Origin: Zwartia sp. | GTDB lineage: Bacteria; Pseudomonadota; Gammaproteobacteria; Burkholderiales; Burkholderiaceae_B | Direction of reading: 5' to 3' | DNA: 64,000 nt | Assembly (NCBI RefSeq): GCF_049655405.1 | Contig: NZ_JBASJR010000013.1 | Location: forward strand, 162,968 to 226,967 | Part shown: piece by piece, positions 27,962 through 64,000 of the stretch | Layout of the letters: every line of letters starts with the position of its first letter | Numbering within the stretch: the first letter of the stretch is position 1 | Translations under genes and position numbers: made by a program | The notes under the pieces: generated by a model | What the model was told of the DNA's origin: nothing | Database searches by the model: none | Seen by the model: only the letters and a program-made list of their open reading frames with translations

Positions 27962-27963
27962 TT

Positions 27964-29772: not shown

Positions 29773-29821
29773 GTTTAGTCAGCTACTCTACACATCAGTT
29801 TCGATTTATCAGGAGAATGTT

Positions 29822-31282
29822 ATGTCCCCGTCAAAGTCTTCAGTCGCTGTTAGACACACTCAGCGCGGGAGAGCCGTTCTCGTCTGTCTGCTCTCAAGCC
29901 TAAGTTTTACAATGGCATCCTGTGCACAAACAGATCGCACCTCACCACATACCACTCAACAATCGTCAACGACTGAATCACAGGCCCAAACGCCCAAGCT
30001 GCCTTCGGGCCCCAGACCGACTAACGGACTGCTTTTGGTGCCCGGAGATCGAATTGTTTGGCTAGGGGACAGCATTACTGCAGCTCATACTTATGGCCGC
30101 TATGTTGAAGCATTTTTCCTATTAAGAAGACCAGACTTGAACCTGACGTTTATCAATGCTGGAATAGGGGGGCATTCAGCGCTCAATGGTTTGAACAGAC
30201 TTGACTCAGATGTGTTGTCACAACGGCCTTCCGTTGTTGTCGTGAACTTTGGCATGAATGATGCAGCGTATCCAGCAGGAAGTCCGCATGCCGCATTTAT
30301 TCAAAATATTGATGCCACGATTGAGCGCCTCAGACAAGGTGGCGTTCAGCGCATTATTTGGGTTGAACCTACGCCCACTCACACCGCAGGTATTCCTGCT
30401 CAAGCCAAACTCTGGGATCGCCAAAGACAACTTGAGCGTCTTGTTGCCGAAATGCGTGCACATCAGGTGAAATCAGATGTGATTAAGGTGCAATGGCAAG
30501 ACCCAATGAAACAAGCATTAAATGCAGCGGCTGCCAAGCCTGATTTCAAACTGATTCCAGACCGTATTCATCCGAGCGCAGCAGGTCATGCTGTGATGGC
30601 CGCAGAGTTCTTACGTCAGATCGGTGCAGATCTTGAGCCGAGTGTGATTCAAAGCACGGTTAGTCAATCCACGATGGAGACAGAGTTTCGTCAAGTGGGG
30701 GCTGACGCCAAAAAGATCCAAAAAATTCGCAGTACTGTCGATCGCAATACGGGTGCCACTGTCAATGTTGCCAGTGCATTGCCCCCCGTTCCAATGCTCT
30801 ATAACGCTGAACAAAGCAAACTCCTTGGTAACAAATCACTAGAAGCTCTTAGGAGCTTGACTTGGCGTATACAAGGACTCGAGCAGAACACCCGCTACGC
30901 TGTGCAGATCGATGGTTTCAATGTGGGCCGCTTCTCAGGCGCTGAACTCGCAAGAGGGGTTGATGTGATGCCGTCAGATGCCAATCGAAAAACACTTTCA
31001 GTTTTGGCAAAGCGCGAACTTGAAGCTTGTACACTTAAAGACCAATATGTCTTTTTAAATGACTTTGAATGTCTGTTTGATATGCTCTATCAAAAAGATC
31101 AGTTACGTATGCTGATGAGACCTGATAGGGTAAGAGATCTACCCAATTTCGGCACGGTCCGTCTGACAACCTACACAAACTTTACCGATAGTTGGATCGA
31201 CTCTGCAAGTCGTGCCATTACCGAGCGAGCATTGCAAATGCGCAGCACACCTCACACGCTATCGCTTGTTCCGGTGCGTTGA
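29822..31282 (+). CDS. SGNH/GDSL hydrolase-family lipoprotein with about 200-aa C-terminal extension
   Basis: Lipobox-like signal (LSSLSFTMASC). SGNH blocks I (IVWLGDSITAA), III (VVNFGMNDA) and V (DRIHPSAAGH). AGGAGA SD before ATG 29822; the ORF-track start 29591 overlaps the previous gene. Confidence 0.7.
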   Translation: MSPSKSSVAVRHTQRGRAVLVCLLSSLSFTMASCAQTDRTSPHTTQQSSTTESQAQTPKLPSGPRPTNGLLLVPGDRIVWLGDSITAAHTYGRYVEAFFLLRRPDLNLTFINAGIGGHSALNGLNRLDSDVLSQRPSVVVVNFGMNDAAYPAGSPHAAFIQNIDATIERLRQGGVQRIIWVEPTPTHTAGIPAQAKLWDRQRQLERLVAEMRAHQVKSDVIKVQWQDPMKQALNAAAAKPDFKLIPDRIHPSAAGHAVMAAEFLRQIGADLEPSVIQSTVSQSTMETEFRQVGADAKKIQKIRSTVDRNTGATVNVASALPPVPMLYNAEQSKLLGNKSLEALRSLTWRIQGLEQNTRYAVQIDGFNVGRFSGAELARGVDVMPSDANRKTLSVLAKRELEACTLKDQYVFLNDFECLFDMLYQKDQLRMLMRPDRVRDLPNFGTVRLTTYTNFTDSWIDSASRAITERALQMRSTPHTLSLVPVR

Positions 31283-41410: not shown

Positions 41411-42097
41411 ATGATTAACCAAAAAATCCCATTCTTTTTAAAAAATGTCCTTGCAGCGTTTCTGCTCATCAGTGCGTTGGGGACTGTTTTTTTAACGACT
41501 GCCCAGGCAGCCGATGCTAAGGACTTCTGGTTCTATATCATTAACGACCGTGACGATCAATTAAAAGAGCTTCTACGCAGAGGGATGGATCCAAATCAAA
41601 AGAGTCCGAATCAACAGACACCTCTGACCATGGCGGCCCGAGAGAACTCTTGGAAAGCATTTGATGCGCTGCTAAACAGCCCTAAAGTCGACGTTAACCT
41701 GCCAAATTCCTACAAAGAAACACCCTTGATGTATGCAGCACTCTTGGGGGATCTCCCTCGCACTCAACGCTTGCTGTCAAAAGGTGCAAAGGTCAATCAG
41801 CCTGGTTGGTCAGCCCTTCATTACGCTGCGATCAAAGGACACGCCAAGATTGTCACCTTGCTGCTCTCAAAAGGAGCCCTGGTCAACGAACCCTCCCCAG
41901 ATGGAGATACGCCCCTGATTCTGGCTGTCAAATCAGGGGACGTGCCAACAGTTCAGGCATTGATCGGCGCAGGTGCAGATCCGATGCTATCCAACTTTAA
42001 AGCTCAAAATGCCATTGAAACTGCGCGCGCCGAAGGGCGCAGCTCACTTGCGACGGCGCTAGAAAAAGTGGTGGCTGGACGTAAAACTCAACCTTAA
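41411..42097 (+). CDS. Exported ankyrin-repeat protein
   Basis: Signal peptide (AAFLLISALGTVFLTTAQA) followed by at least four ankyrin repeats (TPLTMAAREN..., TPLMYAALLGD..., SALHYAAIKGHAKIVTLLLSKGALVN, DTPLILAVKSGDVPTVQALIGAGADP). Confidence 0.8.
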   Translation: MINQKIPFFLKNVLAAFLLISALGTVFLTTAQAADAKDFWFYIINDRDDQLKELLRRGMDPNQKSPNQQTPLTMAARENSWKAFDALLNSPKVDVNLPNSYKETPLMYAALLGDLPRTQRLLSKGAKVNQPGWSALHYAAIKGHAKIVTLLLSKGALVNEPSPDGDTPLILAVKSGDVPTVQALIGAGADPMLSNFKAQNAIETARAEGRSSLATALEKVVAGRKTQP

Positions 42098-51535: not shown

Positions 51536-52636
51536 TTACTTGGACAGCACTTTGCTGATGGCTTCACCAATTTGAGTCGTGTTGGCTTTTCCACCCAGGT
51601 CTGGTGTGTGAGGGCCTTGGCTCAACACTTGCTCAATCGCCGTCACAATCGCATCATGCGCATCCAGATAAGGCTTTTGTTCCGCCGCTGGCATGCCACG
51701 ACCGAGGTAATCTAACATTAAGGCACCTGACCAGATCATCGCGATCGGGTTGGCGATATTTTTGCCGTAAATGTCAGGGGCAGAACCGTGGACAGGCTCA
51801 AACAATGAAGGGAACTTGCGATCTGGGTTCAGGTTAGCCGAAGGCGCCAAACCGATCGTGCCGGTACAAGCAGGACCCAAGTCAGAAAGAATATCGCCAA
51901 ACAAGTTAGAAGCTACCACCACATCAAAACGATCTGGTTGCAAGACAAAGCGTGCGGACAAAATGTCGATATGCTGTTTATCGGTGGTCACTGTTGGATA
52001 ATCTTTACCGACCTCTGCAGCGCGCTCATCCCAATAGGGCATACTGATCGCGATGCCGTTTGACTTGGTCGCAATCGTCAAATGTTTACGCGCACGACGT
52101 GAGGCCATTTCAAAAGCAAAACGCAACACACGATCGCAACCGATGCGGGTAAAGATTGACTCTTGAAGAACGATTTCGCGGTCAGTGCCTTCGAACATCT
52201 TTCCGCCCACAGCGGAATATTCGCCTTCGGTGTTTTCGCGGACGACAAAAAAGTCGATGTCGCCTGCCTTGCGATTGGCCAAGGGACAAGGTACGCCGTC
52301 AAACAAGCGGACTGGGCGCAAGTTGATGTACTGGTCGAATTCGCGACGGAACTTGAGCAGGGAACCGTACAAAGAAGTATGGTCCGGCACAATTGAAGGC
52401 ATCCCGACTGCACCGAAATAAATCGCATCACAATCTTGGAGGTGGCTCTTCCAATCTGCAGGCATCATTTCGCCAGTTTTGGCGTAGTAATCACAAGACG
52501 CCCAGTCAAAATGACGGTATTCAAGATTGAGGCCAAACTTCTCTGAGGCAGTCTTCAATACCCGCAAACCCTCGGGCATCACTTCTTTACCAATACCATC
52601 ACCAGGCAGTACTGCAATACGAAATGGGCGACTCAT
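51536..52636 (-). CDS. Tartrate dehydrogenase/decarboxylase-like (isopropylmalate/isocitrate dehydrogenase family)
   Basis: FRIAVLPGDGIGKEV start, NLFGDILSD and EPVHGSAPDI motifs. The 366-aa size and sequence look like the TtuC/D-malate dehydrogenase subgroup. Confidence 0.85.
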   Translation of the reverse strand: MSRPFRIAVLPGDGIGKEVMPEGLRVLKTASEKFGLNLEYRHFDWASCDYYAKTGEMMPADWKSHLQDCDAIYFGAVGMPSIVPDHTSLYGSLLKFRREFDQYINLRPVRLFDGVPCPLANRKAGDIDFFVVRENTEGEYSAVGGKMFEGTDREIVLQESIFTRIGCDRVLRFAFEMASRRARKHLTIATKSNGIAISMPYWDERAAEVGKDYPTVTTDKQHIDILSARFVLQPDRFDVVVASNLFGDILSDLGPACTGTIGLAPSANLNPDRKFPSLFEPVHGSAPDIYGKNIANPIAMIWSGALMLDYLGRGMPAAEQKPYLDAHDAIVTAIEQVLSQGPHTPDLGGKANTTQIGEAISKVLSK

Positions 52637-52672: not shown

Positions 52673-54232
52673 CTATTTTTTACAGGTCGAAGGACCCAAG
52701 GCGTCCTGAGCTGCCCGATTGATGCCAGCATTGAGCTCGGCAATGTTAGAAACGCGATACATCTTGCCGCCCGTCGCCTCTGCCACACACGCGGCGGCAC
52801 CCGAGCCACCGATATCGACCACGTTAATTTTAAGATGCGGTTTTTGCCTGGCGAGATTTCGGGCGACCGCACAAGGATCTCCGCCGCACGACTCGCCACC
52901 GTCAGAGACCAATAAAATCGTACTTTCTTTATTTACCCCATCCACTAACCTGCCCGCTTCCAAAATGCCATCGGCAAGCGGTGTACCTTGGTGGGGACGT
53001 AAGCTTCTCAACTGATTGATCATCTGTCCTCGCTGCGAGGGTGCGAATCGGCCCATATTACGGGCGGCAGGACAGGCGTCGACCACGACCAGCCCTGTCC
53101 CCACGTCAGAGGGCAAGCGCTGTAAAACATCCACTGTCGCTTGTTGAGCGGTCACCATACGAGTCGGCTGACGGGTCAAATACTCAAGTTTTTGTCGGTC
53201 TTGGCCGCTCATAAACTGCATCGCCAGAGGCCCACGATTTAAATTTGCAAACACCCATTGCTCGTCCTGACGCGAAGCATTGATATTGACCATCATTGAT
53301 CCAGAAGAATCAAACACCACCACCATTTCAGGTGCGAGAGCAGCAGGACGATCTTCTGGGCAAAGATTTTTAGCCGTTGTAATGGTGGCAGGAGGCTTGA
53401 CTACCGGCTTAGGCTTTGGAGGTGGTGGTGGCACAGGTTTAGGTGGCTTGACAGGCTCTGGCACAGGAATAGGTTCAGGTTCCGGTTCAGGTGTTGGCTC
53501 AGGCTCGGAGACAGGCTCAGGATCCACCACGGGCAAGTCAGCTGGCTTGGGCACATGAATGGGCTCTGGTGGCTCAGGTACCACAACAGGCTGAGGTGGT
53601 TCGGGCTCAGGCGTCACCACAGCAACAGGCTCAGTCACAGGCACTTGAATAGGCAGTTCAACTTTATTAAAGGGTGAACGCGGACACCAAAACCACCATA
53701 GTAAAAATACAAACAATAATAAAAGCAATGCACCCAGAAGCCACTTCCAAAGCTGACTGGACGCAATCGGTGATGCGATGAGTGGAACAACCGGTGCCGC
53801 TAAAATTTTTCGGGGAGATTCGGCCGCAATCGCTCGATTCCAATACAGCAAAACTGGCTGCCCACCGACTGAGTAAATCGCATCAATTGGAGGATCTGCA
53901 CTCGCATCGCGCAACAGACTTAATAGAGATGGATCATGAGTAGGCTGAGCAGCATATGATTCTGCGAACTGTCCAATCGCTCGCAAGCGCTCGAATAACG
54001 CGATGCGCAAATGCAAAGCAGCGGCTTCAGGCAACTCCGCGTATGGAATGGGCTGGCCCGCAAAAGATGTGTGCCACTGCACCGTACCATCTGTTGACAC
54101 GCGAGGCGCGGCATACAGTGCCACCACACTTGGTGGCACAGAAGCACCTAATACCCGTATAAAAGAATCATGCAGCGTCTCCAAGCCTTGAACGGACGTG
54201 AAAGCAAAGCGACGCTGCACAATTCGATTCAT
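52673..54232 (-). CDS. Bitopic membrane protein: cytoplasmic N-domain, TM, TonB-like EP/KP proline rod, periplasmic vWA domain
   Basis: TM LWKWLLGALLLLLFVFLLWWFWC. About 88-aa Pro-rich rod (PEPEPPQP...EPEPTPEPEPEPIPVPEPVKPPKPVPPPPPKPKPVVKPP). vWA with intact MIDAS (VVVFDSSGSM; ILLVSDGGE). ATG 54232 lies 4 nt after the upstream stop with GGAG SD. Confidence 0.75.
   Translation of the reverse strand: MNRIVQRRFAFTSVQGLETLHDSFIRVLGASVPPSVVALYAAPRVSTDGTVQWHTSFAGQPIPYAELPEAAALHLRIALFERLRAIGQFAESYAAQPTHDPSLLSLLRDASADPPIDAIYSVGGQPVLLYWNRAIAAESPRKILAAPVVPLIASPIASSQLWKWLLGALLLLLFVFLLWWFWCPRSPFNKVELPIQVPVTEPVAVVTPEPEPPQPVVVPEPPEPIHVPKPADLPVVDPEPVSEPEPTPEPEPEPIPVPEPVKPPKPVPPPPPKPKPVVKPPATITTAKNLCPEDRPAALAPEMVVVFDSSGSMMVNINASRQDEQWVFANLNRGPLAMQFMSGQDRQKLEYLTRQPTRMVTAQQATVDVLQRLPSDVGTGLVVVDACPAARNMGRFAPSQRGQMINQLRSLRPHQGTPLADGILEAGRLVDGVNKESTILLVSDGGESCGGDPCAVARNLARQKPHLKINVVDIGGSGAAACVAEATGGKMYRVSNIAELNAGINRAAQDALGPSTCKK
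53390..53653 (-). repeat. Degenerate short tandem repeats encoding the EP/KP proline rod
   Basis: Plus-strand text shows reiterated GGYTCAGG/GGTGG units (ggttcaggttccggttcaggtgttggctcaggctcgg...). These translate on the minus strand to (E/K/V)-P repeats, including PPPPP. Confidence 0.6.
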
Positions 54233-54236
54233 TGAC

Positions 54237-54752
54237 CTACTCCAGAATGGCAGATTGCTTGCGCAGTTTTTCCACCTCAACCTCAACCGCTTGAATGCGC
54301 GTCTGTAACTCTTGAGCGTTGGTCGTACCAGAAGTTACAGGCGTTTTTTGTAGTGCATCCAAACGTGCACGCGCAACCTTGATCTGCTCAGTCAAGGCTT
54401 GGTTGGAAGGATTGCTTGCCTGGACGGATCGAAGATAAGCACCGACGCTGCGCGTGATGTTTGTCACGTCAGCACGACGCTTGACCACATCAGCTGCGAC
54501 TAAAGAATTTTTCTTTTCCATGTCAGCGACTGCCTGACGCAACAAGACATTATTTTGTCTTTCAGCTGCAAGCTGTGCTTCCTTGTCCTGCGCACGTGCA
54601 TCGTATGAACCAGAAAAATCGCAGTTCATTTTGGTCAATAAACCTGCGTCTCGCATCGCTTTAGGATCGCACCCAGCCTTGTCCATCGTACAGGCCGCCA
54701 ACAAGGTCGTGAGCCCAAGAACAGTGATTACTTTAGAAACTTGTTTCATCAT
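54237..54752 (-). CDS. Coiled-coil lipoprotein
   Basis: Lipobox LLAAC after a typical signal peptide. The rest is heptad-like and charged (AQLAAERQNNVLLRQAVADMEKKN...RIQAVEVEVEKLRKQ). No family recognised. Confidence 0.6.
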   Translation of the reverse strand: MMKQVSKVITVLGLTTLLAACTMDKAGCDPKAMRDAGLLTKMNCDFSGSYDARAQDKEAQLAAERQNNVLLRQAVADMEKKNSLVAADVVKRRADVTNITRSVGAYLRSVQASNPSNQALTEQIKVARARLDALQKTPVTSGTTNAQELQTRIQAVEVEVEKLRKQSAILE

Positions 54753-54759
54753 TTCACCA

Positions 54760-55467
54760 TTAACCAGTTACTTTAATCGAAGAGGCCAAACCATAAGCCA
54801 CATCAAGTTGACCTTTCATCGCATCGCGTGTCCGGCTGAGCTGATCAAGCTGACCTTGCAATTGACGCACATCTGCACCGACTGCCCGCTCCTTTTCAAT
54901 GATGTCCTGATACTCATCCACACGGGTATTGATGTTGGCTAACTCCTTTTCAAGGAATGCCTTGTTTGCATTGATACGGTCAAGCTCAGCCTTGGCCTTT
55001 TTTTGGTCAACCTGCTTGGCAGCAACTTGTGCATTCAGCGTCTTTAAGGTTCGCTGATTTTCTTGCAATACAACATTGATATTTTTCATACGGGTCTGCA
55101 ATTTTTGATTGTCAGCCTGCACATCCTGAATGAACGAATTAATCCGCTGCTCGTTATTGGCATATTTTGCACGACGTTGATCAAGCAAATAATTGGCGCC
55201 AGCACCGACACCACAACCTGCAACAGCAGCAATCGCCATACAGGCAGCCTTATTACCAGAGTTGCTCAGCGCACAAGCCAGTACACCCGTCAAAGCACCC
55301 GCCGCACAAGCTTGTGCACCTGACTTACTAAAAAACTTCGCTTCTTCGCCCTCTGTCAGGCGCGGATCAACATCACCTCCACCCATGTTTTGGCAACCTG
55401 CCAAGAACAAACAACTGACTAATGCAATAAATGCTGAGCGTAATTTAAGGCTTGATTGTGAAAACAC
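54760..55467 (-). CDS. Lipoprotein with glycine/alanine-zipper segment and long coiled coil
   Basis: Lipobox FLAGC. Gly/Ala/Cys-rich zipper (GAQACAAGALTGVLACALS...AIAAVAGCGVGAGANY), then about 130 aa of coiled coil. GTG start preceded by GGAG SD, 11 nt after the upstream stop. Confidence 0.6.
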   Translation of the reverse strand: MFSQSSLKLRSAFIALVSCLFLAGCQNMGGGDVDPRLTEGEEAKFFSKSGAQACAAGALTGVLACALSNSGNKAACMAIAAVAGCGVGAGANYLLDQRRAKYANNEQRINSFIQDVQADNQKLQTRMKNINVVLQENQRTLKTLNAQVAAKQVDQKKAKAELDRINANKAFLEKELANINTRVDEYQDIIEKERAVGADVRQLQGQLDQLSRTRDAMKGQLDVAYGLASSIKVTG

Positions 55468-55478
55468 GTGACGACTCC

Positions 55479-57086
55479 TTAGTTAACTGAGACTTTTTTA
55501 CATGCGGATAGCCACTCAGACTGAGTGATCTTCCTATCTTTCAGATACTGACCTAAATGTGACCAATACGTATCGACATATGCATCGAGGTTGCTGCTTT
55601 TTCTTGCCAATAACTGCTGACGCTTAATGGCAACCTCTGGCGACACCATCGGAGCGGTATAGATGGCACCTGCCTCGACAATACTGTCCGAATAGAGACC
55701 CAAGGCAAGCTCCTGTGCTACTTTGCGAGTATCCACATTTCGCTTGATCAGCGAACAACGTGCTTGGTCTTCTTTTGCGAGAGTCTCAACCTTGGAACAC
55801 CCTTCGTCATAATTCTTTTTAAGCCCGTCATAAAAACGACCTTCTCGATTCAACAAAACGCACATAAAAGCGCCCTGTTGGAGCGCAGAACGAATTGCAA
55901 TCCCTCGTTGCTCATCACGTGTTTGGTTGCTACTTCGCAACTCAGTGCGCAATGCTTCAAGTTCCTTTTTTAGCTTGTCGTCTTTTAAACCTGACATCAG
56001 ATTGCTAAGACGCTCGACTGTGCTCGTCGCGGCTGGGCCTTGCGCATTCGCACTTGCATTGGGTGCATTCTCACGCGTACCGAGCTCAGCCCACCCCTGC
56101 TCAATTTCCTTACTACGATTTGCCGATGTTAAGGAGGGTGCCACCACGACAAGCCTAAATCCTGAGGTCTTCTGTTTGTTGGGTGCAGCCTCTCGGTAAT
56201 AGGTTTGCTCTTGGCGCCAAGACGTACGAATGTCACTCTCAGGCGTCATATAGTTGGCACCTCGAACGATAAAGCCACCCGCTTGCCCGTGAAATCGATC
56301 AAGTTTGTTTAGACGAAACGACTCAAACATCATTTCATCTGCATTGCCCAACATATCATGCAAACCTAGAGGATTAGGTTGTAGCAAACCAGCCAGTTGA
56401 AGTTTGCCGTTTGCAGATTGTGATCCTGCAAACCAAACATATTTATTCATCCCGTCGGGCATCGGAAACGTTGCTTCACGAAACTCGGTGCTCGATACGC
56501 TGTTGCCACCACGTGCTGCAAACTCCCACTCCACTTCAGTCGGCAAGCGCACAAACCCGGCAACATTGTCCTCAACAGGCAAACTCTTGAGTGCATTCGC
56601 ACGCAACCAGATGTTGAGTGTGTCACCAAATTGCATCGCTTCAAACCAACTCAGCTCAACTTTAGGCAGCATCAGCTTGACTGAAGGTCTTGGGCAAGTC
56701 TCCTGCATCACCGATTGGTATTGAAGCTGGGTGACCTCATACTTTGCCATCAAATAGTAGCGACCAGGATTGGGCTTGTCAGTTGTAAAGCTACCGGCAA
56801 TGTGAGCAGGATGCGCTTGTTCGAGATAACGCAATGCTGCACCCTCAGAACCGAGCGTCACGCCAAAATCTTCGAGCGGCTTACTGAGAGGAACATGCAC
56901 ACGACGAAAAACCATGGAGCCCTCGCAAGGCATGGGCAAGACCACATCGTCCTCCGTTGGCTTTGGATTAAAAAAACGTGCTTCCCAAGGGGCAGAAACA
57001 GCCAACGCGCTACACAGCGACAAGCCAAGAACACAGGACAAATTAAATAGGCTTCTAAAGATCACGCAAACTCTCCGCTGGTTCAA
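55479..57086 (-). CDS. Exported FGE-sulfatase (SUMF1)-fold protein lacking the catalytic Cys pair, with about 215-aa C-terminal extension (TagR-like)
   Basis: Signal peptide. FGE-fold blocks YLMAKYEVTQLQY, RLPTEVEWEFAARGG, NPLGLHDMLGNADEMM, FIVRGANY, SGFRLVV. No Cys in the region where FGE active-site cysteines lie. Start is TTG 57086 or GTG 57065; both overlap the permease gene. Confidence 0.8.
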   Translation of the reverse strand: MNQRRVCVIFRSLFNLSCVLGLSLCSALAVSAPWEARFFNPKPTEDDVVLPMPCEGSMVFRRVHVPLSKPLEDFGVTLGSEGAALRYLEQAHPAHIAGSFTTDKPNPGRYYLMAKYEVTQLQYQSVMQETCPRPSVKLMLPKVELSWFEAMQFGDTLNIWLRANALKSLPVEDNVAGFVRLPTEVEWEFAARGGNSVSSTEFREATFPMPDGMNKYVWFAGSQSANGKLQLAGLLQPNPLGLHDMLGNADEMMFESFRLNKLDRFHGQAGGFIVRGANYMTPESDIRTSWRQEQTYYREAAPNKQKTSGFRLVVVAPSLTSANRSKEIEQGWAELGTRENAPNASANAQGPAATSTVERLSNLMSGLKDDKLKKELEALRTELRSSNQTRDEQRGIAIRSALQQGAFMCVLLNREGRFYDGLKKNYDEGCSKVETLAKEDQARCSLIKRNVDTRKVAQELALGLYSDSIVEAGAIYTAPMVSPEVAIKRQQLLARKSSNLDAYVDTYWSHLGQYLKDRKITQSEWLSACKKVSVN

Positions 57087-58296
57087 TTTTTGTCACCACA
57101 ACACCTCCTACACCCGCCACGACTAGGGCCAACATTAGAGCGCCTGCAAGCGCCATCACAAAATGTATGGGCTCAAGTCGGCAGACGAAACGATCCGCTT
57201 TCATATATTCGCCCAGCATTTGATTAAACAATTGACTCCCCAACAAATACATCAAGCAGCCCACGGTAAACCCCGTCACCGTCAACACAGCGGACTGCAT
57301 CACCACATACCCTTGCATGGCCAGTCGTCCATAACCCATCAATCTCAATAGCGCAAGATCCTTACGCTTACGGTCAATATTGGCCATGAATGCACCGATC
57401 AGCGATGCGGCACAGCCCAGCACTGCAATCCAGGCAATGACGCCAAAAACAATTCCCAGCACCTTATCAATGGACTGTACGGATTTAATTTCAGCCAGTC
57501 GACTAGACGTCTCGATGCCCTCCTTCAACAGACGGTTTGCCAAAGCCTCAACATTCTCTATTTTGTCGGCATATATTCTCGCTCGAGCAAAATGGGTGCG
57601 AGGCTGAAGGGCCGAACCTGTTTCTACACCAGAGCCGGGAACGTAGAAGCCATCACGAAAGTCTTCCACTTCAATGAGAAGAGGCAATGTCAAAAAAACA
57701 GCGGGGCGAGAAAAAGACTCGGGGGGCAAAATAGCTAAAACACGCACCTCAATCTGCGCACGCTCTGTGCGACTTTCGTGCAAACGGGTCACTCTAAGTT
57801 GAATCCTCTCTCCTGGCTTAACCGCGAGCCGAGAGGCGGCCGAAGACGACAGTACGACATCGTTCCTACCTTGAGGAATTGAGATCCCATCCAGGACAGG
57901 ATCGTTGATAGCTGTTGGAATCAACTCGACATTTTCTGCAAAACGTCGACTATCCACAAAGAGATCTGCAATCGTATTGAGAGACCGCGTCAAAGGCATC
58001 ACAAAACCCACGCCCTCTAAGTTGCGCATTTTTTCAAACCAAGTGGGCTCAAGCTTTGCACTTGCGAGCATGCGAATTTCAAGATTACGAGGATCAGAAA
58101 GCAACTCCGCACGCATCTGACTCACAATTCCAAACTTCAACCCAAATAACAACAATAAAGGCGCCACAACAGCCACAATCGAGGCCATAATACAAATCGA
58201 AACTTTGCGATCGTGCAGCAGGTCACTTAAACCAAGCGACAACAGCACCTTGAGTGGAGGTGCGGAAAAAGTTGAAGACTGTTTAGAGGCGCTCAT
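57055..58296 (-). CDS. ABC transporter permease, FtsX/MacB-type (4 TM with large periplasmic domain; TagS-like)
   Basis: TM1, about 230-aa periplasmic domain, then three TMs with RKRKDLALLRLMG and C-terminal EPAESLRDL, typical of the MacB/LolCE/FtsX family. 14-nt overlap with the ATPase gene. Confidence 0.88.
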   Translation of the reverse strand: MSASKQSSTFSAPPLKVLLSLGLSDLLHDRKVSICIMASIVAVVAPLLLLFGLKFGIVSQMRAELLSDPRNLEIRMLASAKLEPTWFEKMRNLEGVGFVMPLTRSLNTIADLFVDSRRFAENVELIPTAINDPVLDGISIPQGRNDVVLSSSAASRLAVKPGERIQLRVTRLHESRTERAQIEVRVLAILPPESFSRPAVFLTLPLLIEVEDFRDGFYVPGSGVETGSALQPRTHFARARIYADKIENVEALANRLLKEGIETSSRLAEIKSVQSIDKVLGIVFGVIAWIAVLGCAASLIGAFMANIDRKRKDLALLRLMGYGRLAMQGYVVMQSAVLTVTGFTVGCLMYLLGSQLFNQMLGEYMKADRFVCRLEPIHFVMALAGALMLALVVAGVGGVVVTKIEPAESLRDL

Positions 58297-58999
58297 TAAA
58301 AACAGTCCTTCGTTGTGCGCTCACAGTTCCTACAATCTGCCTGATCCCTACATCCTCCACTAAAGACCACTCGTGCGTCACGATCAATGCACCAATACTA
58401 AATTCACGGGCAATCTCGACGATTAATGTGAACAACTCCTTGGCTAATATTGGATCAAGCGCGGCAGTCGGTTCATCCGCCAACAACAAGCCGGGACGAT
58501 GCGCAATGGAGCGAACAAAAGAAACGCGCTGACGCTCTCCAATTGACAGTTGCGCAGGCATGCGCCCGAGTAACGGCTCTAAACGCAATCGCTCAATGAC
58601 TTGTTCGAGAAAGGAATCCCTACCCTGCAGTCCAACCAGTTTCCTTGGTAATTCAATGTTTTGCTTGACGTTTAAAAACGGGAGTAAGCCACCACTTTGT
58701 GGCACAAAACCCAGGTAATGCTGACGTAATCTGGCCCAACGCGTCTCACGTTCTGAAGCACTCAGGTGCAAATCCCCCGTCAAGTCCACAGCACCCAAAC
58801 GATGATGCGTAACTGACTTTGGCTCCAGTATTAAACCAAGGGCCTCTAGCAAGGTGCTTTTCCCACACCCGCTGGGTCCAACAATGGCCGCAACATCTCC
58901 AGCATTGAGTCGACATGCAGATAGGGCCACTGCATAGGACTCACCTTCACGTCCACGCGAGACTTCCATATCGCTCACATCGAGAATAGGCTCAGTCAC
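58283..58999 (-). CDS. ABC transporter ATP-binding protein (MacB/LolD-like; TagT-like)
   Basis: Walker A GPSGCGKST, Q-loop, signature LSIGERQR, Walker B LLLADEPTAALD, H-loop THE. GTG start 1 nt after the upstream stop. Confidence 0.93.
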   Translation of the reverse strand: MTEPILDVSDMEVSRGREGESYAVALSACRLNAGDVAAIVGPSGCGKSTLLEALGLILEPKSVTHHRLGAVDLTGDLHLSASERETRWARLRQHYLGFVPQSGGLLPFLNVKQNIELPRKLVGLQGRDSFLEQVIERLRLEPLLGRMPAQLSIGERQRVSFVRSIAHRPGLLLADEPTAALDPILAKELFTLIVEIAREFSIGALIVTHEWSLVEDVGIRQIVGTVSAQRRTVFNERL

Positions 59000-59000
59000 G

Positions 59001-60995
59001 CTAAGGTAAAGACTCTAAAGGCACTGGATAAACAGCTTCACTTGGATCGCTTCCTTTAGCAAGAGAAACCCAAGAACCTGTATCAGCATTAAAACTCTGA
59101 TACTGCCTCAGCTTTGTGTTGAGGCGCATCATGAATTGGGTCTGCGCCGCAACAGACATCGCTTTCCAGCCCTCTTCATCCAAACCCATCACATCGCTTT
59201 TGTAAGGCAAACCCTCGAGGTATTCACCCAACAAACCCATCTGACCAAGTTTTTGAGCATTACCCTGACGCAAATCATTAGGATCGCGTCCCATGGTCGC
59301 CGCGACAGAGCGCAACCGGTCAAACATGTCGGTAGGCGACACCAGCGAAGCATTCGCCGCCTCAACAATTTGCGTCACGACTGAACTCAGGTCGCTCAGC
59401 TGAGATTTTGTCAACAGCACACGTACTTCAGTCGTTGGAATATTTTGTTTGACCAGATCACGGTCACTAATCCATGCTTTAAAAAATGGTGGCGCTTTAG
59501 TGTTGGTTGCACCACCAAGATAAGCAAGCTGCATGGCACGACCGAGCAACGCCGAATCACGTGCAATCGCAGCAGCTGTCGATCCAGCTGGAGCAGGAGG
59601 CGTTGCAGGCGTAGATTGGGTCGCTGTCAATGCACTGCCCGCCACCACCTCCCCCATGGAGGCTTGCTTGATTTGTGTCACGAGTGACTGCCCGAGACTT
59701 TCAATCGTTTCACCAAAAACGTTCACACGTCCTGCGTCAACCGAGTAGTAAAGGGGACGATTGGCAATCGAATTAAAGGCAAGCGTATCGTATTGACGTT
59801 GAGCAGACTGGTGATTCTTGGCTCCCTCTGGTGTTTTGAGGTGCATGACATAAAGCGCCACGCCTTTCTCTTTCGCCAACTCACGCACAGCTTGTGCATC
59901 TAACCCTGTTGCTGAAAGCGGATCGTTGGCGTCCAGCGCACCGGCATCCGTCACAAGAACAATGTAGCGTGCACCAAACTCATTCCAATTGATCTTTTCT
60001 AAGGCTTCTTTGACGCCTGCATAAGGATCTTCATCAAACTTCGGTGTTGAGATTTTCGTTGCTTTTAAATCTTTAATTTTTTCAAAGAAATCTGCACCAT
60101 TTTTGACTTGTGTGGGATCCGCATAAATGCGTGTGTTGTATTCAATCGCCGGTACGGCTGAGAGTGCGGAACGAAATGCCACCAAACCAAATTTGACCTT
60201 ATCGTCAATTTTTTCCTTTTCCATACGCGCATAGATATTTTTCATGACTGCGCGCATCCGCTCAATATAGGGATCCATCGACAAGGTCGAGTCCATCACG
60301 AACACAACGCCTGCACTGAAAGCCTTGATTGAGCTTTGAACAGCTTGCGGACTTACAGCAGGATTGGCATTGGGATCCTGACGACTCACCGAAGCCACTT
60401 GAAGCAAGCGAACATTAAAACCCGCATCACTCATGACCTCTTCAGCTTGCAAAATTGGCAGCAAGTAAAAGTTTTTTCGGAAGTCTACGTATAGCTCAGG
60501 CTCACGTGCAAGGACTTGCGGATTACGTCCGACCTTAGCCATGCTATCCAAGATAGGGGCATAGGTTAAGGCAGGATCGGCAGCGTCGATAATTTTTTCG
60601 ATACTCTCACGATCTTTAAAAAAGAGTGCAAGTGTGCGATTGGCTGGATTGGTAAAGGCCAAAGACATCTGCATTTTCCATTCAACAGAACAAGCAGCAT
60701 CTAACCAACCGATTTTCTTACCAACCGTGTCAACGCCAACTTCAAGCCATGTTTTACCTGCGCTTTCCGTGCGCTGATAAACGTAGTAACGACTGAAGGC
60801 TTCTTGTGCAGCCCCGCTCTGATCACCGGGCTTGGCATAGAGTTTGCAGGTCGGTGTGGTCAGCACACGCTGATAAAGCGTTTTTTTTCCTTCCTGCAAG
60901 AGTGGCTTATTGTTTGCCGCTTGACCGTAGCTCAGCGGCGTCAACAATACACTCGACACACAGAAGAAAAATGACAAAATATTTTTGATCTGCAT
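59001..60995 (-). CDS. Secreted vWA-domain protein (664 aa) with unassigned N- and C-terminal domains
   Basis: Signal peptide (FCVSSVLLTPLSYGQA). Beta-rich N-domain. vWA with MIDAS DSTLS (VVFVMDSTLSM, 60279-60293) and YIVLVTDAG. About 240-aa C-terminal region. Confidence 0.75.
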   Translation of the reverse strand: MQIKNILSFFFCVSSVLLTPLSYGQAANNKPLLQEGKKTLYQRVLTTPTCKLYAKPGDQSGAAQEAFSRYYVYQRTESAGKTWLEVGVDTVGKKIGWLDAACSVEWKMQMSLAFTNPANRTLALFFKDRESIEKIIDAADPALTYAPILDSMAKVGRNPQVLAREPELYVDFRKNFYLLPILQAEEVMSDAGFNVRLLQVASVSRQDPNANPAVSPQAVQSSIKAFSAGVVFVMDSTLSMDPYIERMRAVMKNIYARMEKEKIDDKVKFGLVAFRSALSAVPAIEYNTRIYADPTQVKNGADFFEKIKDLKATKISTPKFDEDPYAGVKEALEKINWNEFGARYIVLVTDAGALDANDPLSATGLDAQAVRELAKEKGVALYVMHLKTPEGAKNHQSAQRQYDTLAFNSIANRPLYYSVDAGRVNVFGETIESLGQSLVTQIKQASMGEVVAGSALTATQSTPATPPAPAGSTAAAIARDSALLGRAMQLAYLGGATNTKAPPFFKAWISDRDLVKQNIPTTEVRVLLTKSQLSDLSSVVTQIVEAANASLVSPTDMFDRLRSVAATMGRDPNDLRQGNAQKLGQMGLLGEYLEGLPYKSDVMGLDEEGWKAMSVAAQTQFMMRLNTKLRQYQSFNADTGSWVSLAKGSDPSEAVYPVPLESLP

Positions 60996-60996
60996 C

Positions 60997-62001
60997 TTAT
61001 TTCCTTAGGGCTTCAAGACGCGTTTTCGCATCAGTATTTTCGGGCTCTTTGGACAGCACCAACTCATACCAGTAGATGGCCGTGTCTTTATCCGCAGCAC
61101 TCAAACAGCCAGCCACGAAAGTCGCAGGATCGAACTCGCGGGCATACGCAAGCGCCACCTTGGCATCGCCAGACTGTCCTTTAAATGCGTAGAGACGCTG
61201 AACAACATCACAACGTTTAGCTTCTTTGGCTGTCGCAATAACAGTTAAAACTTGATTCGAGTCAGGATTGGTTTTTAGGCAAGCCTGGATAAACAGCAAA
61301 TCATCCTTTGTGGCAGTCAATGCTTCCGTACTGCAGGGAGCAGGCTCTGCAGGTGCCACTGGAGGACTCGTGAGTGCAGGATTCACTGTGCTTGATGTGA
61401 TAACAGGCTGAGCAGTTGAGCCAAAATATTTCCAGGCAAAATAGCCTGCGACCACTAATATCAATAAAGCAATCAGCGCGACCCACAAGCCAATTTTTGA
61501 TTGTTTCTGACTAGGCTGAATAATTGGTTCTGGCGCAGGCTCAGCGACCTCTGGCAATGGCGACACAAGACTATCCGCGGCCGCCACCCTCTGCGCATCC
61601 GCAACATGGTTAACAGGATCCGCACTCTGACCCGCAGCGCGAGAAGACAACACGCCATCGCGCAAACGCAGAACGCCTATTGCTTCCTCGGAGCCTATGC
61701 GCACCTGCAGCTGATAGGTCATCTGAGGATTTTCAACAAGCGGGTCAACCAAGCGCGCATCAAGTGCCAACACCACTGAAGTATCAATAAGCTCTTCGGA
61801 CAAACTCACCTGATGCCACGTCTGCGTGGCAGTCCATTGTCCGTGCTCACCTAAATATCGGTGATCTTGATTGCGCTGCACACACACCTCAGCACCTGCA
61901 CCAAACTCTAGACTCTCACGATCCCAGCTTGTCAGAACCAATACTCCCACACCCGGGCGACCACTGGCAGCTGGTTTTAATTCAGGTCTAATCTTTTTCA
62001 T
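60997..62001 (-). CDS. Bitopic membrane protein: cytoplasmic beta-rich N-domain, TM, periplasmic 4-Cys helical (Sel1/TPR-like) domain
   Basis: TM IGLWVALIALLILVVAGYFAWKYF near residues 170-193. C-terminal helical repeats (VALAYAREFDP...AIYWYELVLSKEPENTDAKTRLEAL) with four Cys. ATG shares one base with the upstream stop (TAATG). Confidence 0.55.
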   Translation of the reverse strand: MKKIRPELKPAASGRPGVGVLVLTSWDRESLEFGAGAEVCVQRNQDHRYLGEHGQWTATQTWHQVSLSEELIDTSVVLALDARLVDPLVENPQMTYQLQVRIGSEEAIGVLRLRDGVLSSRAAGQSADPVNHVADAQRVAAADSLVSPLPEVAEPAPEPIIQPSQKQSKIGLWVALIALLILVVAGYFAWKYFGSTAQPVITSSTVNPALTSPPVAPAEPAPCSTEALTATKDDLLFIQACLKTNPDSNQVLTVIATAKEAKRCDVVQRLYAFKGQSGDAKVALAYAREFDPATFVAGCLSAADKDTAIYWYELVLSKEPENTDAKTRLEALRK

Positions 62002-64000
62002 TATTCAGGATTCACTTTTGCTGCATTTAATTTAGCGATGATGGCACCTAGCTCAGCATTTTGTTCGGGCTTGATTTCACGACCTCCATCATGGCCTGCG
62101 TTGTCTAAAACCAATTGTGCAAAGCCTACGAGCCAATCACCCATGTAAATACGCGTATGGTCAATCGCCTCGTTTCCTATGGCTGGCAGTTTTCCTCTTG
62201 GAATCAAAACAGGATGCTCAAAGAGCTTATGTCCTGAATGAATGCGACTGTCTGGGCGCTCAGCAAGAGGCACATTGATGTAGCCTAACCACGCCACAAA
62301 GTCACCCAACAGAGTTTTTGCAGCCATCACTTGCCGATCGACCAGGCGTTCCCGTTTTGTGCCGACCTGATCTGCTCCGCTTAACGCTCCCAACAGCTGT
62401 TTTTGCACATCCAGGCGCGTGGCAGCCGTGATCATTTCGTCGCACAGCATCTCAGTGGCCTCTTTTGACAAGCCAAAATAACTCAGCATCGTCGTTTCGC
62501 TTGGCATGTTTCGTAAGTGCTCAATCCACTCTCGCAAAACAGTCTGAGCAAAGCGCGCATCACTACTTAACGAAGATTTTGTTTGCATGCTCGAGGCAGT
62601 GACAGATTTTTTCTGGTCACCAAAAATATCGAGTGCATCGTCTAATCCAAAAATATCATCGCCTAGATTAAGAGCACCAGGCACGTCGATGTTTTCTGTT
62701 GACTCGGTGGGCTGAGAGGAATTTTCGGCGCCCATATACAAGCCTTGCAACACGGAATCTGGCAGTCGTAATTTTTCTTGCAACTCAGCAAGAAGCGGAA
62801 TACGCGGTTTTAAAGCCGTCACGACCTGCTGGGCAATTTTTCGCTTTGCCTCGATCTCACCCATGCCATCCTGGTGAAACCAACGACCCAGGCGATTACT
62901 CATCAAGTCATGCAGCACCGCATCCATTTGCTCAGCGATACGCTCCAACTTGACCTGACGCACAGATACTTTAGCCAGGTATTCGCTCAAACGCTCTACA
63001 CCACCATCATTGAGTGCCATCATTGCCTGCCATGCTGCTGCAGGCTCGGACACATGACTTTGAATCAACTCAGCATGACTAAAAATACGTTCCATTAAGG
63101 CCAATTGGCTCGCAGAGGAGGCATTCGCCGCCTTTTCCTGTCCGTTTTCCATTTCTAAAAACGCGACGGGCATACGTGGCTTACGGACTAAGAACGTATT
63201 ATTAAAAGCGCTACCATTGGCCCAATCTTGCATCCAGTCAAAACTGCCGAAACGCTCTAGCATCGTCATTTTGACGAGATTATTCCAAACGGTGTGCAAC
63301 ATATCCTCGTCTTTCGTGAGCGAGTCAGCAATCTTGATGTCAAACATCGTGACGGCCCAAATCAATCCAGGCAAACGCTTTGCGCGCTCTGAGGACGTCG
63401 CACCTTGAGTTTTGCGGATCCACTCAGTCAGGACGGGTCCAACCTCTGTGACATCCGACTGTTTGTGTGAGGCCGTGCACACGACCAACACATTCATTTC
63501 CTGCGTGTCGGTATAGCGTTCAAACAGATAAGCAACTTTGCCGCGCAATAACAATTGCGCCACAGGATTACCTGACTTTTCCTTGCCCTGCGCAGACGAG
63601 ATATCAACCAGATTATCCAACCCCAAACGTCCGCGATAACCCGGAAAATCAAGCAGATCGACTTCTTCAAAAATCTTTTGATGCGGGACATTAATCAGAG
63701 GAAAGATCAACTCAGCTGTCAGCGCAGCCAACTGTGCCATCGTTAAGCGCTGTGCGACACCGATTTTTCCCTCACATAACGGCAACACATCAATCGGCAA
63801 ATCTTCTGTGCGACCCAAACGTTCCAACATATCAACGTTCATGATGCTATCGGCTTGCGAAAGCGAGCCACCCGGACCTGTTGGGCGAACCACTGCCTCA
63901 ATAGGGGCGTAGACGCGCGTCGGATAGCCCAGCGCTGCCAAGGTCTGGGACAGCATCAAAAATGTTTGAGTTAAAGCTGGCGATTGACGCCACAAACAAG
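62001..64000 (-). CDS. SrfC-like putative NTPase ('putative virulence factor' family), 5' end outside window
   Basis: Frame is open to the window edge, so the TTG at 63995 is not a real start. VDLLDFPGYRGR (DxxG/Walker-B-like, 63639-63659) and NPVAQLLLRGKVAYLFERYT match what I remember of Salmonella SrfC. The P-loop is expected upstream, outside the window. Confidence 0.6.
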   Translation of the reverse strand, partial: CLWRQSPALTQTFLMLSQTLAALGYPTRVYAPIEAVVRPTGPGGSLSQADSIMNVDMLERLGRTEDLPIDVLPLCEGKIGVAQRLTMAQLAALTAELIFPLINVPHQKIFEEVDLLDFPGYRGRLGLDNLVDISSAQGKEKSGNPVAQLLLRGKVAYLFERYTDTQEMNVLVVCTASHKQSDVTEVGPVLTEWIRKTQGATSSERAKRLPGLIWAVTMFDIKIADSLTKDEDMLHTVWNNLVKMTMLERFGSFDWMQDWANGSAFNNTFLVRKPRMPVAFLEMENGQEKAANASSASQLALMERIFSHAELIQSHVSEPAAAWQAMMALNDGGVERLSEYLAKVSVRQVKLERIAEQMDAVLHDLMSNRLGRWFHQDGMGEIEAKRKIAQQVVTALKPRIPLLAELQEKLRLPDSVLQGLYMGAENSSQPTESTENIDVPGALNLGDDIFGLDDALDIFGDQKKSVTASSMQTKSSLSSDARFAQTVLREWIEHLRNMPSETTMLSYFGLSKEATEMLCDEMITAATRLDVQKQLLGALSGADQVGTKRERLVDRQVMAAKTLLGDFVAWLGYINVPLAERPDSRIHSGHKLFEHPVLIPRGKLPAIGNEAIDHTRIYMGDWLVGFAQLVLDNAGHDGGREIKPEQNAELGAIIAKLNAAKVNPE

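Follow-up and report, generated by a model that had tools for sequence, protein, structure and literature searches.

The srfABC genes were first described as SsrB-regulated factors of Salmonella, and since 2000 their products have remained an orphan "virulence factor" whose biochemical function has never been established. In some organisms these genes are part of longer gene sets. A ten-gene neighbourhood reported in 2013 from host-associated Deltaproteobacteria contains srfABC together with tagQ, tagR, tagS, tagT, ppkA and two other genes, and a type VI secretion system (T6SS) was noted in just one of those genomes (PMC3608642). Genes for T6SS post-translational control were also found beside srfABC in X. 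stockiae in 2019; co-expressed SrfABC was cytotoxic, and from E. coli it was toxic to insect and mammalian cells and insecticidal when injected (PMC6950479). A 2026 preprint on H. parainfluenzae described a cassette with an ATP-binding cassette (ABC) system resembling Lol, a von Willebrand factor A (vWA) protein and a formylglycine-generating enzyme (FGE) family protein by srfABC, and presented an AlphaFold 3 model which stacks SrfB, and then SrfC, on an SrfA-N platform. It claimed a degenerate kinase-like fold for SrfA-N, saw no Sec/Tat signal in SrfA, and proposed vesicle-mediated toxin export; TagQRST/PpkA and a second protein with SrfA-N go unmentioned in it (10.64898/2026.09.18.752743). 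TagQRST are known T6SS activators in Pseudomonas and have been studied only there. Here we analyze a locus at positions 52673–64000 of a 64,000-nt stretch of DNA (the window) from a Zwartia species (Alcaligenaceae), which is the downstream part of an extended srf operon. An earlier reading of this DNA (the original prediction) knew of no functional description of such a combined locus and treated it as new. The three studies above had in fact noted it, none of them tested its function, and our literature search found no paper testing the function of the accessory genes.

Nine open reading frames with the same direction fill 52673–64000 on the minus strand (g1–g9 in transcription order). When the junctions were re-read from the sequence, g1 and g2 were found to overlap by 1 nt (TAATG at 62003–61999), whereas g2 and g3 are joined by TAA-g-ATG at 60999–60993, and g3 and g4 by TAG-c-GTG at 59003–58997. 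The g4/g5 overlap is 14 nt (58283–58296), and that of g5/g6 depends on the start of g6: 11 nt from GTG 57065, which has a GGAG before it, and 32 nt from TTG 57086. The last three spacers (g6/g7, g7/g8, and g8/g9) measure 11, 7, and 4 nt and are preceded by AGGAG, GGTGA, and GGAG, respectively. The packed, co-directional arrangement and the junctions quoted in the original prediction were all exact, and its protein inventory (SrfC, two vWA proteins, ABC ATPase, FtsX/MacB-type permease, FGE-fold protein, and lipoproteins) agrees with our profile and fold searches. Its count of nine genes was too low. SrfA and SrfB are encoded just past the window end, where srfC (g1) is cut, and both genes, which the original prediction had proposed to look for beyond position 64000, were found upstream in GCA_049652265.1, where a 57.7-kb contig (L001) carries an identical copy of the locus. 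This copy shows the start of the operon: a 494-amino acid SrfA and a 993-amino acid SrfB are encoded upstream of the 904-amino acid SrfC in the same orientation, with gaps of 14 and 5 nt. The operon consists of eleven genes in the order srfA-srfB-srfC-g2-g3-g4-g5-g6-g7-g8-g9, of which the window holds the downstream nine, and this identity is secure.

We examined how widely this arrangement is kept. Relatives of g3 were detected in 528 of 185,579 species genomes. Among the 80 best-scoring loci, a sample biased towards close relatives of the query, all eleven genes are present in 66 and the order is identical in 64, which bears out the gene-order conservation that the original prediction had put forward for checking. 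Among the remaining loci, eleven are cut by contig ends and one (Ventosimonas) lacks g4–g9. The hosts of these 80 loci are Burkholderiaceae, Alcaligenaceae, Pseudomonas, Azotobacter, Pasteurellaceae, Proteus, and Oceanisphaera. Across related loci, up to 85 of them, the spacing is just as tight, and the median gap lies between −17 and +27 nt at every junction but the last. Chance is excluded as the origin of the nine-gene packing, since synteny holds across 64 loci. A consensus scan for promoters and terminators over 49–64 kb of the window gave counts not above those in shuffled sequence, with no site in the intergenic gaps, and the GC content of the locus does not deviate from the rest of the window.

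The largest proteins of the operon are SrfB and SrfC. Within the window, g1 (62001–64000, minus strand) encodes the C-terminal ~665 of the 904 amino acids of SrfC (residues ~240–904). It matches the Virul_Fac family (Pfam PF10139, E-value = 3.2e-211) only over profile positions 220–878, and the gene is therefore cut by the window end. The full srfC is located at L001:7287–10001 (904 amino acids) and its product matches the family at an E-value of 0 with 1021 bits, compared with 704 bits for the window fragment and a cut-off of 28.1. Thus, the earlier assignment of the first gene to an SrfC-like NTPase holds for the family, but only the C-terminal part lies in the window: the Walker A motif GLSQAGKS (residues 71–78, within the conserved GFFGLSQAGKS) is outside it, whereas a conserved VDLLDFPGYRGR motif, which may be read as a DxxG-type motif, is inside. 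In the L001 copy, SrfB matches PF07520 (E-value = 0, 1361 bits) and SrfA matches NF040486 (SrfA_fam, 360 bits versus a cut-off of 150). SrfB carries LDxGNSRxCGILIE and ILTxPPxMPxxER, which we read, from the motifs themselves, as putative phosphate-binding motifs of the Hsp70/actin type. SrfC is predicted to be a large cytoplasmic P-loop protein with a GTPase-like character, and SrfB is predicted to be a large cytoplasmic protein. No signal peptide was found in SrfB or SrfC, and only a membrane helix was found in SrfA. A PDB sequence search with SrfB and SrfC returned no related solved structure.

The last gene of the operon, g9 (52673–54232, minus strand, 519 amino acids), encodes a paralogue of SrfA. 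The protein consists of an SrfA-N domain (residues 1 to ~150), a transmembrane helix (165–183), a Pro/Glu-rich periplasmic linker (~185–290), and a vWA domain with six conserved Cys residues. The vWA domain is a weak Pfam match (E-value = 1e-5), but the DxSxS motif of its metal ion-dependent adhesion site (MIDAS) is intact (DSSGS). The first 150 residues match SrfA_fam weakly (NCBIfam, E-value = 5e-7), and BLASTP of g9 against SrfA of the same locus gave 28% identity over 105 amino acids (E-value = 2e-5). Profile comparison was much clearer: hhalign aligned the g9 and SrfA families with a probability of 99.6% (E-value = 5e-24) over 160 columns that include the transmembrane helix. Both proteins share the same plan, i.e., an N-domain, a W-rich transmembrane helix, a Pro-rich linker, and a Cys-bearing periplasmic domain. 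The periplasmic domain itself differs, being a vWA domain in g9 and a lipocalin-like domain in SrfA, so that the plan of SrfA is SrfA-N, transmembrane helix, and lipocalin-like domain (the lipocalin call is from 10.64898/2026.09.18.752743).

The AlphaFold2 model of the g9 N-domain has a predicted local distance difference test (pLDDT) score of 91.9. A Foldseek search of PDB with this model gave a best E-value of 0.3, and ~30 of the top 50 weak matches were kinase-like folds (choline kinase, RIO, APH, TTK, and CDK) with TM scores of 0.35–0.43. These weak matches agree with, but do not prove, the proposal that SrfA-N may be a degenerate kinase-like domain (10.64898/2026.09.18.752743). No conserved catalytic Lys or Asp is present in the alignment of the g9 SrfA-N domain; therefore, it is no working kinase. 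With a putative kinase-like domain followed by a transmembrane helix and a vWA domain, g9 has the layout of a PpkA deprived of its catalytic machinery. A homologue search with the g9 N-domain alone returned only three fragments and was repeated with the full protein. In a search of 1.84 billion representatives, the g9-type N-domain occurred in 194 clusters, nearly always at the N-terminus, and a vWA domain was on the same chain in 60 of 84 sampled distant members. The status of the terminal gene as an SrfA paralogue with a PpkA-like layout is the one element that we did not find in the literature.

Other loci also carry two genes of this type. In two Proteus loci (L066 and L075, from Proteus sp. 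and P. hauseri), g9 is located upstream of srfA, so that the two SrfA-N genes adjoin. On the K. pneumoniae plasmid NZ_CP089990.1, the gene before srfA (L089:613–1725) is annotated as "tellurite resistance domain protein". Its product has an SrfA-N-like N-domain (SrfA_fam, E-value = 2.4e-4; BLASTP against g9, E-value = 3e-9), so that here, too, the locus encodes a second protein with SrfA-N, now joined to another C-terminal domain.

Five further genes encode a set of envelope proteins that resembles TagQRST. The ABC ATPase g4 (58283–58999, minus strand, 238 amino acids; Pfam ABC_tran, E-value = 2.5e-22) belongs to the TagT/LolD/MacB class, and its best NCBIfam match is LolD (116 bits versus a cut-off of 307.75). 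The g5 protein (57055–58296, minus strand, 413 amino acids) is an FtsX/MacB-type permease (Pfam FtsX, E-value = 1.6e-12; MacB_PCD, E-value = 3.9e-4) with four transmembrane helices and a large periplasmic domain between the first and the second; it scores 23 bits against lolCE, whose NCBIfam cut-off is 362. Thus g4 and g5 do not reach the equivalog level of LolD and LolC/E, and the presence of FtsX with MacB_PCD and of ABC_tran makes them TagS/TagT-type at the family level only.

The exported protein g6 (55479–57065, minus strand, 528 amino acids, or 535 if translation starts at TTG 57086) contains a signal peptide, an FGE-fold domain (~100–310; Pfam FGE-sulfatase, E-value = 1.4e-29), and a helical C-terminal domain with conserved Cys. 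Both this assignment and that of SrfC to PF10139 uphold what had been called from the open reading frames. The combination of signal peptide and FGE fold (COG1262) is of the TagR type at the domain level only. The original prediction described this protein as Cys-less, but it has six conserved Cys residues (47, 124, 402, 423, 437, and 522), and only the catalytic pair appears to be missing. The family consensus RGGNYLTxQADLRTALR has no Cys, and no Cys column was observed among 74 orthologues in the segment RGANYMTPESDIRTSWR. We take this segment to be aligned with the FGE active site, which is RGGSYMCHRSYCYRYR in the human enzyme. The protein thus appears to have the fold of FGE in a non-catalytic form. 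In a PDB sequence search, its closest solved relatives included the PorK/GldK ring protein and the T. denticola variable protein (E-values = 1e-6 to 1e-5). A tblastn search of plasmids with g6 detected only further srf loci (Klebsiella, Enterobacter sp. 638, and Cereibacter) and unrelated FGE proteins.

Two lipoproteins complete this set. The first, g7 (54760–55467, minus strand, 235 amino acids), has a lipobox (LAGC, with L-x-G-C conserved), a Gly/Ala/Cys zipper segment, and a coiled coil. Its best NCBIfam match is VI_TagQ (NF041250, E-value = 2.8e-8), at 33 bits far below the cut-off of 300. The same model was matched by 26 of 32 g7 orthologues (best E-value = 1.2e-13); therefore, g7 is a distant relative of TagQ rather than an equivalog. 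The second, g8 (54237–54752, minus strand, 171 amino acids), is a coiled-coil protein with a conserved lipobox and three conserved Cys residues, and no Pfam or NCBIfam family was found for it. Comparison of g7 and g8 by hhalign gave a probability of 96.8%, part of which may come from coiled-coil composition, and g8 may be a shortened paralogue of g7.

The remaining two genes encode a bitopic and a secreted protein. The bitopic protein g2 (60997–62001, minus strand, 334 amino acids), present in all 80 related loci, contains a novel N-terminal cytoplasmic domain of ~125 amino acids, a variable Pro/Glu linker, a transmembrane helix (170–188), and, in the periplasm, a TPR/Sel1-like domain in which four Cys residues are invariant (223, 241, 264, and 299 in an alignment of 33 sequences). 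It matched no Pfam or NCBIfam family, and among 33 orthologues Pfam detected nothing beyond weak TPR matches in the C-terminal part. The secreted protein g3 (59001–60995, minus strand, 664 amino acids) carries a signal peptide and consists of a beta-rich N-domain in which two Cys are conserved, a vWA domain (~228–446; MIDAS motif DSTxS), and an alpha/beta C-domain. The vWA domain is weak in Pfam (VWA_2, E-value = 5e-4), but it was confirmed by fold because the AlphaFold2 model (mean pLDDT 69.7) matched integrin I-domains in Foldseek (E-values = 4e-9 to 1e-7, probability 1.0). More than 2090 homologues of g3 were found, some of which carry the JGI label "PpkA". The likeness to TagQ/R/S/T and a PpkA-type vWA protein, which had been proposed from the sequence, is thus seen in the TagQ matches of g7 orthologues, in these labels on g3 orthologues, and in the three earlier studies.

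Based on the Pfam content of most of the ~10–52 kb region of the window and of 10 kb upstream of the operon, neither T6SS genes nor genes for a Hanks kinase, PP2C, or FHA protein were recognized. The earlier claim that the 64 kb contain no T6SS gene therefore holds for the scanned region and for the upstream side, where kinase genes were also missing from the 10 kb scanned, whereas the first ~9.8 kb lie outside it. None of the eleven operon proteins has a Pkinase match in Pfam, and PP2C (PppA) and FHA (Fha1) had no match in the locus proteins or annotated upstream neighbours, the g2 N-domain being without an assigned fold. With no kinase, phosphatase, FHA, or T6SS gene found in the scanned stretches, an ordinary Tag-Ppk T6SS locus was rejected. 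The original prediction had also suggested that an NTPase stands here in place of the kinase. This is incomplete, as the operon encodes two bitopic proteins with SrfA-N, a domain reported to have a degenerate kinase-like fold, and one of the two has a vWA ectodomain.

What might such a set of proteins do? We tentatively favor, with a confidence somewhat short of even, the hypothesis that the locus encodes a machine for signalling across the envelope, independent of T6SS, in which a Tag-like sensor in the periplasm is coupled to the SrfB/SrfC NTPases. The gene set, the families, the topology features, the paralogy, and the synteny are observed, whereas we infer which way the signal runs, which partners interact, and what the output is. 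The sensing or mechanotransduction role suggested in the original prediction is plausible. In this model, SrfA, g9, and g2 would be three bitopic proteins of the inner membrane, SrfB and SrfC would be in the cytoplasm, and g7/g8, g6 (TagR-like), g4/g5 (TagT/TagS-like), and g3 would form a periplasmic and outer-membrane set resembling TagQRST. The system would work like the threonine-phosphorylation pathway of Pseudomonas, except that its output would be another. When the outer membrane or periplasm is disturbed, this could be sensed by g7/g8 and g6, aided by ATP-driven movements of g4/g5, and the signal might then be passed to the vWA ectodomains of g9 and g3 via MIDAS-mediated contacts. This may cluster or re-orient the bitopic proteins, whose putatively dead SrfA-N domains (in SrfA and g9) would serve as docking platforms recruiting SrfB and SrfC. 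The result would be an NTP-dependent output at the inner membrane, for which membrane remodelling, repair, and vesiculation are candidates.

A more far-reaching version of this hypothesis is doubtful, and we mention it as a speculation. The extended Srf system may be an autonomous sensor-responder for envelope damage or contact, in which the Tag-like module switches SrfA-N platforms of a pseudokinase type. At the inner membrane, these would assemble SrfB, as an ATPase like Hsp70 or actin, with SrfC, as a GTPase like dynamin, for remodelling, repair, or vesicle shedding. TagQRST-PpkA of Pseudomonas would then be an evolutionary offshoot of this sensor, in which an active Hanks kinase connected to T6SS has taken the place of the dead SrfA-N domain.

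Several observations weigh against the signalling hypothesis. The only functional data on SrfABC name a cytotoxin, and every step of the mechanism is drawn from sequence and analogy. The best scores of g4 and g5 are to LolD and LolCE models, which fits lipoprotein handling as well as signalling, and the TagQ matches are far below the family cut-off (33 versus 300 bits for g7 of the window). The kinase-like fold of SrfA-N has no statistical support here (best Foldseek E-value = 0.3), and the apparent loss of the catalytic Cys pair of g6 depends on where the active-site motif of FGE is placed. In addition, reduced loci on plasmids of Klebsiella and Cereibacter appear to lack g7 and g9, in plasmid annotation that is incomplete; therefore, the branch of lipoproteins and vWA proteins may be dispensable for the core.

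On the other hand, the same genes could serve a toxin. It was proposed that SrfABC is a tripartite toxin and that the downstream genes process and release it, e.g., in outer-membrane vesicles (10.64898/2026.09.18.752743). We consider this unlikely, although it keeps some weight because it is based on the only available experiments, those in which X. stockiae SrfABC was cytotoxic and, from E. coli, insecticidal. The LolD and LolCE scores of g4 and g5 fit export, and so does the presence of the locus on clinical Klebsiella plasmids and in host-associated Pasteurellaceae. However, the Lol equivalog cut-offs are far above the scores of g4 (116 versus 308 bits) and g5 (23 versus 362 bits), there is no membrane-fusion or TolC-like partner at the locus, and g6 appears to lack the catalytic Cys pair of FGE. 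SrfB and SrfC have no detected signal peptide, and the preprint saw no Sec/Tat signal in SrfA. Moreover, the operon is kept in free-living bacteria of freshwater and soil such as Zwartia, Azotobacter, and Pseudomonas putida. We prefer signalling over export because of the missing signal peptides in SrfB/SrfC, the apparently non-catalytic FGE fold, the sub-cut-off Lol scores, the absence of an adaptor or TolC partner, and the retention of the operon in free-living bacteria.

The resemblance of the component set to TagQRST-PpkA, together with the activation of T6SS by TagQRST in Pseudomonas, could also mean that the locus is a post-translational regulator acting in trans on a T6SS encoded elsewhere, with srfABC as a mere neighbour. 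Most Deltaproteobacteria with the locus have no T6SS, however (PMC3608642), and neither the Pfam-annotated parts of the window nor the 10 kb upstream showed a T6SS gene. Catalytic residues are missing from SrfA-N of g9, and the Tag-like genes are packed translationally with srfABC in 64 of 80 loci and travel with them on plasmids. Because of this tight linkage and because no gene for a Hanks kinase, PP2C phosphatase, or FHA protein was found in the eleven-gene operon or its annotated neighbours upstream, such a role is very improbable. Pairing of NTPases with vWA proteins is known from conflict systems. Since NTPases and vWA domains are also combined here, and the locus is mobile and patchy across Proteobacteria and on plasmids, it might be a conflict or anti-phage defence system akin to the "ternary" systems that senses phages at the envelope. 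Ten of the proteins had no specific match to PADLOC models (g7 and g8 alone gave weak coiled-coil matches), no nuclease, protease, pore, or other effector domain was recognized, and the Zwartia locus lies amid housekeeping genes with no deviation in GC content, all of which make defence improbable.

The plasmid forms mentioned above differ in extent. A reduced srf locus, spanning srfA–g6 plus one small gene, is present on at least 115 Klebsiella plasmids, where the SrfA-N gene annotated for tellurite resistance precedes srfA. The Cereibacter azotoformans plasmid NZ_CP090023.1 carries srfB-srfC-g2-g3-g4-g5-g6 (L090:9197–21482), with neither a TagQ-like lipoprotein nor g9 in its incomplete annotation, and genes for a serine protease and a peptidoglycan-binding protein are located upstream. 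This form suggests that srfA–g6 is the core and g7–g9 are accessory.

The flanking genes are common to close relatives only. Upstream of the operon (L001), genes for a polysaccharide deacetylase, a DUF6072 protein, a phosphopantetheinyl transferase, and a beta-eliminating lyase are divergent. Downstream, an Iso_dh gene (tartrate/isopropylmalate dehydrogenase-like; 51536–52636, minus strand) starts 36 nt past the g9 stop and is followed on the same strand by HpcH/HpaI aldolase and AI-2E transporter genes. The consensus scan found no terminator-like site between the g9 stop and the Iso_dh start, and the Zwartia clade may transcribe Iso_dh and the following genes together with the srf operon; this neighbourhood is kept beside the operon only in close relatives. 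Judged by Pfam content, most of the ~10–52 kb region of the window (e.g., BamA, LpxD/A/B, RseP, and Dxr) and the 10 kb upstream of the operon contain housekeeping genes. Among those of the window, adjacent MBOAT, DHHW/ALGX, and GDSL lipase genes (~26498–31282, plus strand) look like a polysaccharide O-acetylation set of the AlgI/AlgJ/AlgX type. A 228-amino acid ankyrin-repeat protein is encoded at 41411–42097 (plus strand) beside TatD and a DUF3298 gene.

The system is widespread, with relatives in 528 species genomes and with forms on many plasmids of clinical Klebsiella. Although already known as a gene cluster, it has been unexplained and is now easier to test. It can be read as an envelope-spanning set: a sensor like TagQRST, a pair of vWA ectodomains, and three bitopic proteins, of which two share SrfA-N, the predicted docking platform of SrfB and SrfC. 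If the signalling hypothesis is true, it would show a TagQRST sensor working outside T6SS, a useful view because TagQRST have been studied only in Pseudomonas.

Among described systems, the H1-T6SS threonine phosphorylation pathway of P. aeruginosa is similar to the locus in composition: each combines an outer-membrane lipoprotein (TagQ there, its distant relative g7 here) and an FGE-fold protein in the periplasm with an FtsX-type permease and its ABC ATPase, and each has a bitopic receptor with a periplasmic vWA domain. The differences are that the cytoplasmic part of the vWA receptor g9 is an SrfA-N domain without the kinase motifs of PpkA, that PP2C, a recognized FHA protein, and T6SS core genes are missing, and that the module is tied to SrfB and SrfC. 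Additional to that pathway are g3 as a soluble vWA protein, g2 as a bitopic protein with a TPR-like domain, and g8 as a second lipoprotein. In g4/g5, the ABC and FtsX pair with its large periplasmic domain (MacB_PCD) is similar to type VII ABC mechanotransducers such as MacB, LolCDE, and FtsEX, but the two proteins are below every equivalog cut-off (LolD, LolCE, MacB, and FtsE), and the locus has no adaptor, TolC partner, lipoprotein chaperone, or amidase activator. The g6 protein resembles the non-catalytic FGE-fold scaffolds PorK/GldK, of the type IX secretion system (T9SS) ring, and the T. denticola variable protein, which are among its closest solved relatives by sequence, and it appears to lack the catalytic Cys pair; unlike these scaffolds, it is no lipoprotein, has a helical Cys-bearing C-terminal domain of ~200 amino acids, and shows no linkage to T9SS. 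Finally, whereas Salmonella has srfABC alone, the operon described here follows the extended srfABC neighbourhoods of the literature, in which the accessory proteins after SrfA, SrfB, and SrfC are of the same kinds (a bitopic and a vWA protein, the ABC ATPase and FtsX permease, an FGE-fold protein, and one or more lipoproteins), and it adds a freshwater member of the Alcaligenaceae as a new host to those described earlier.

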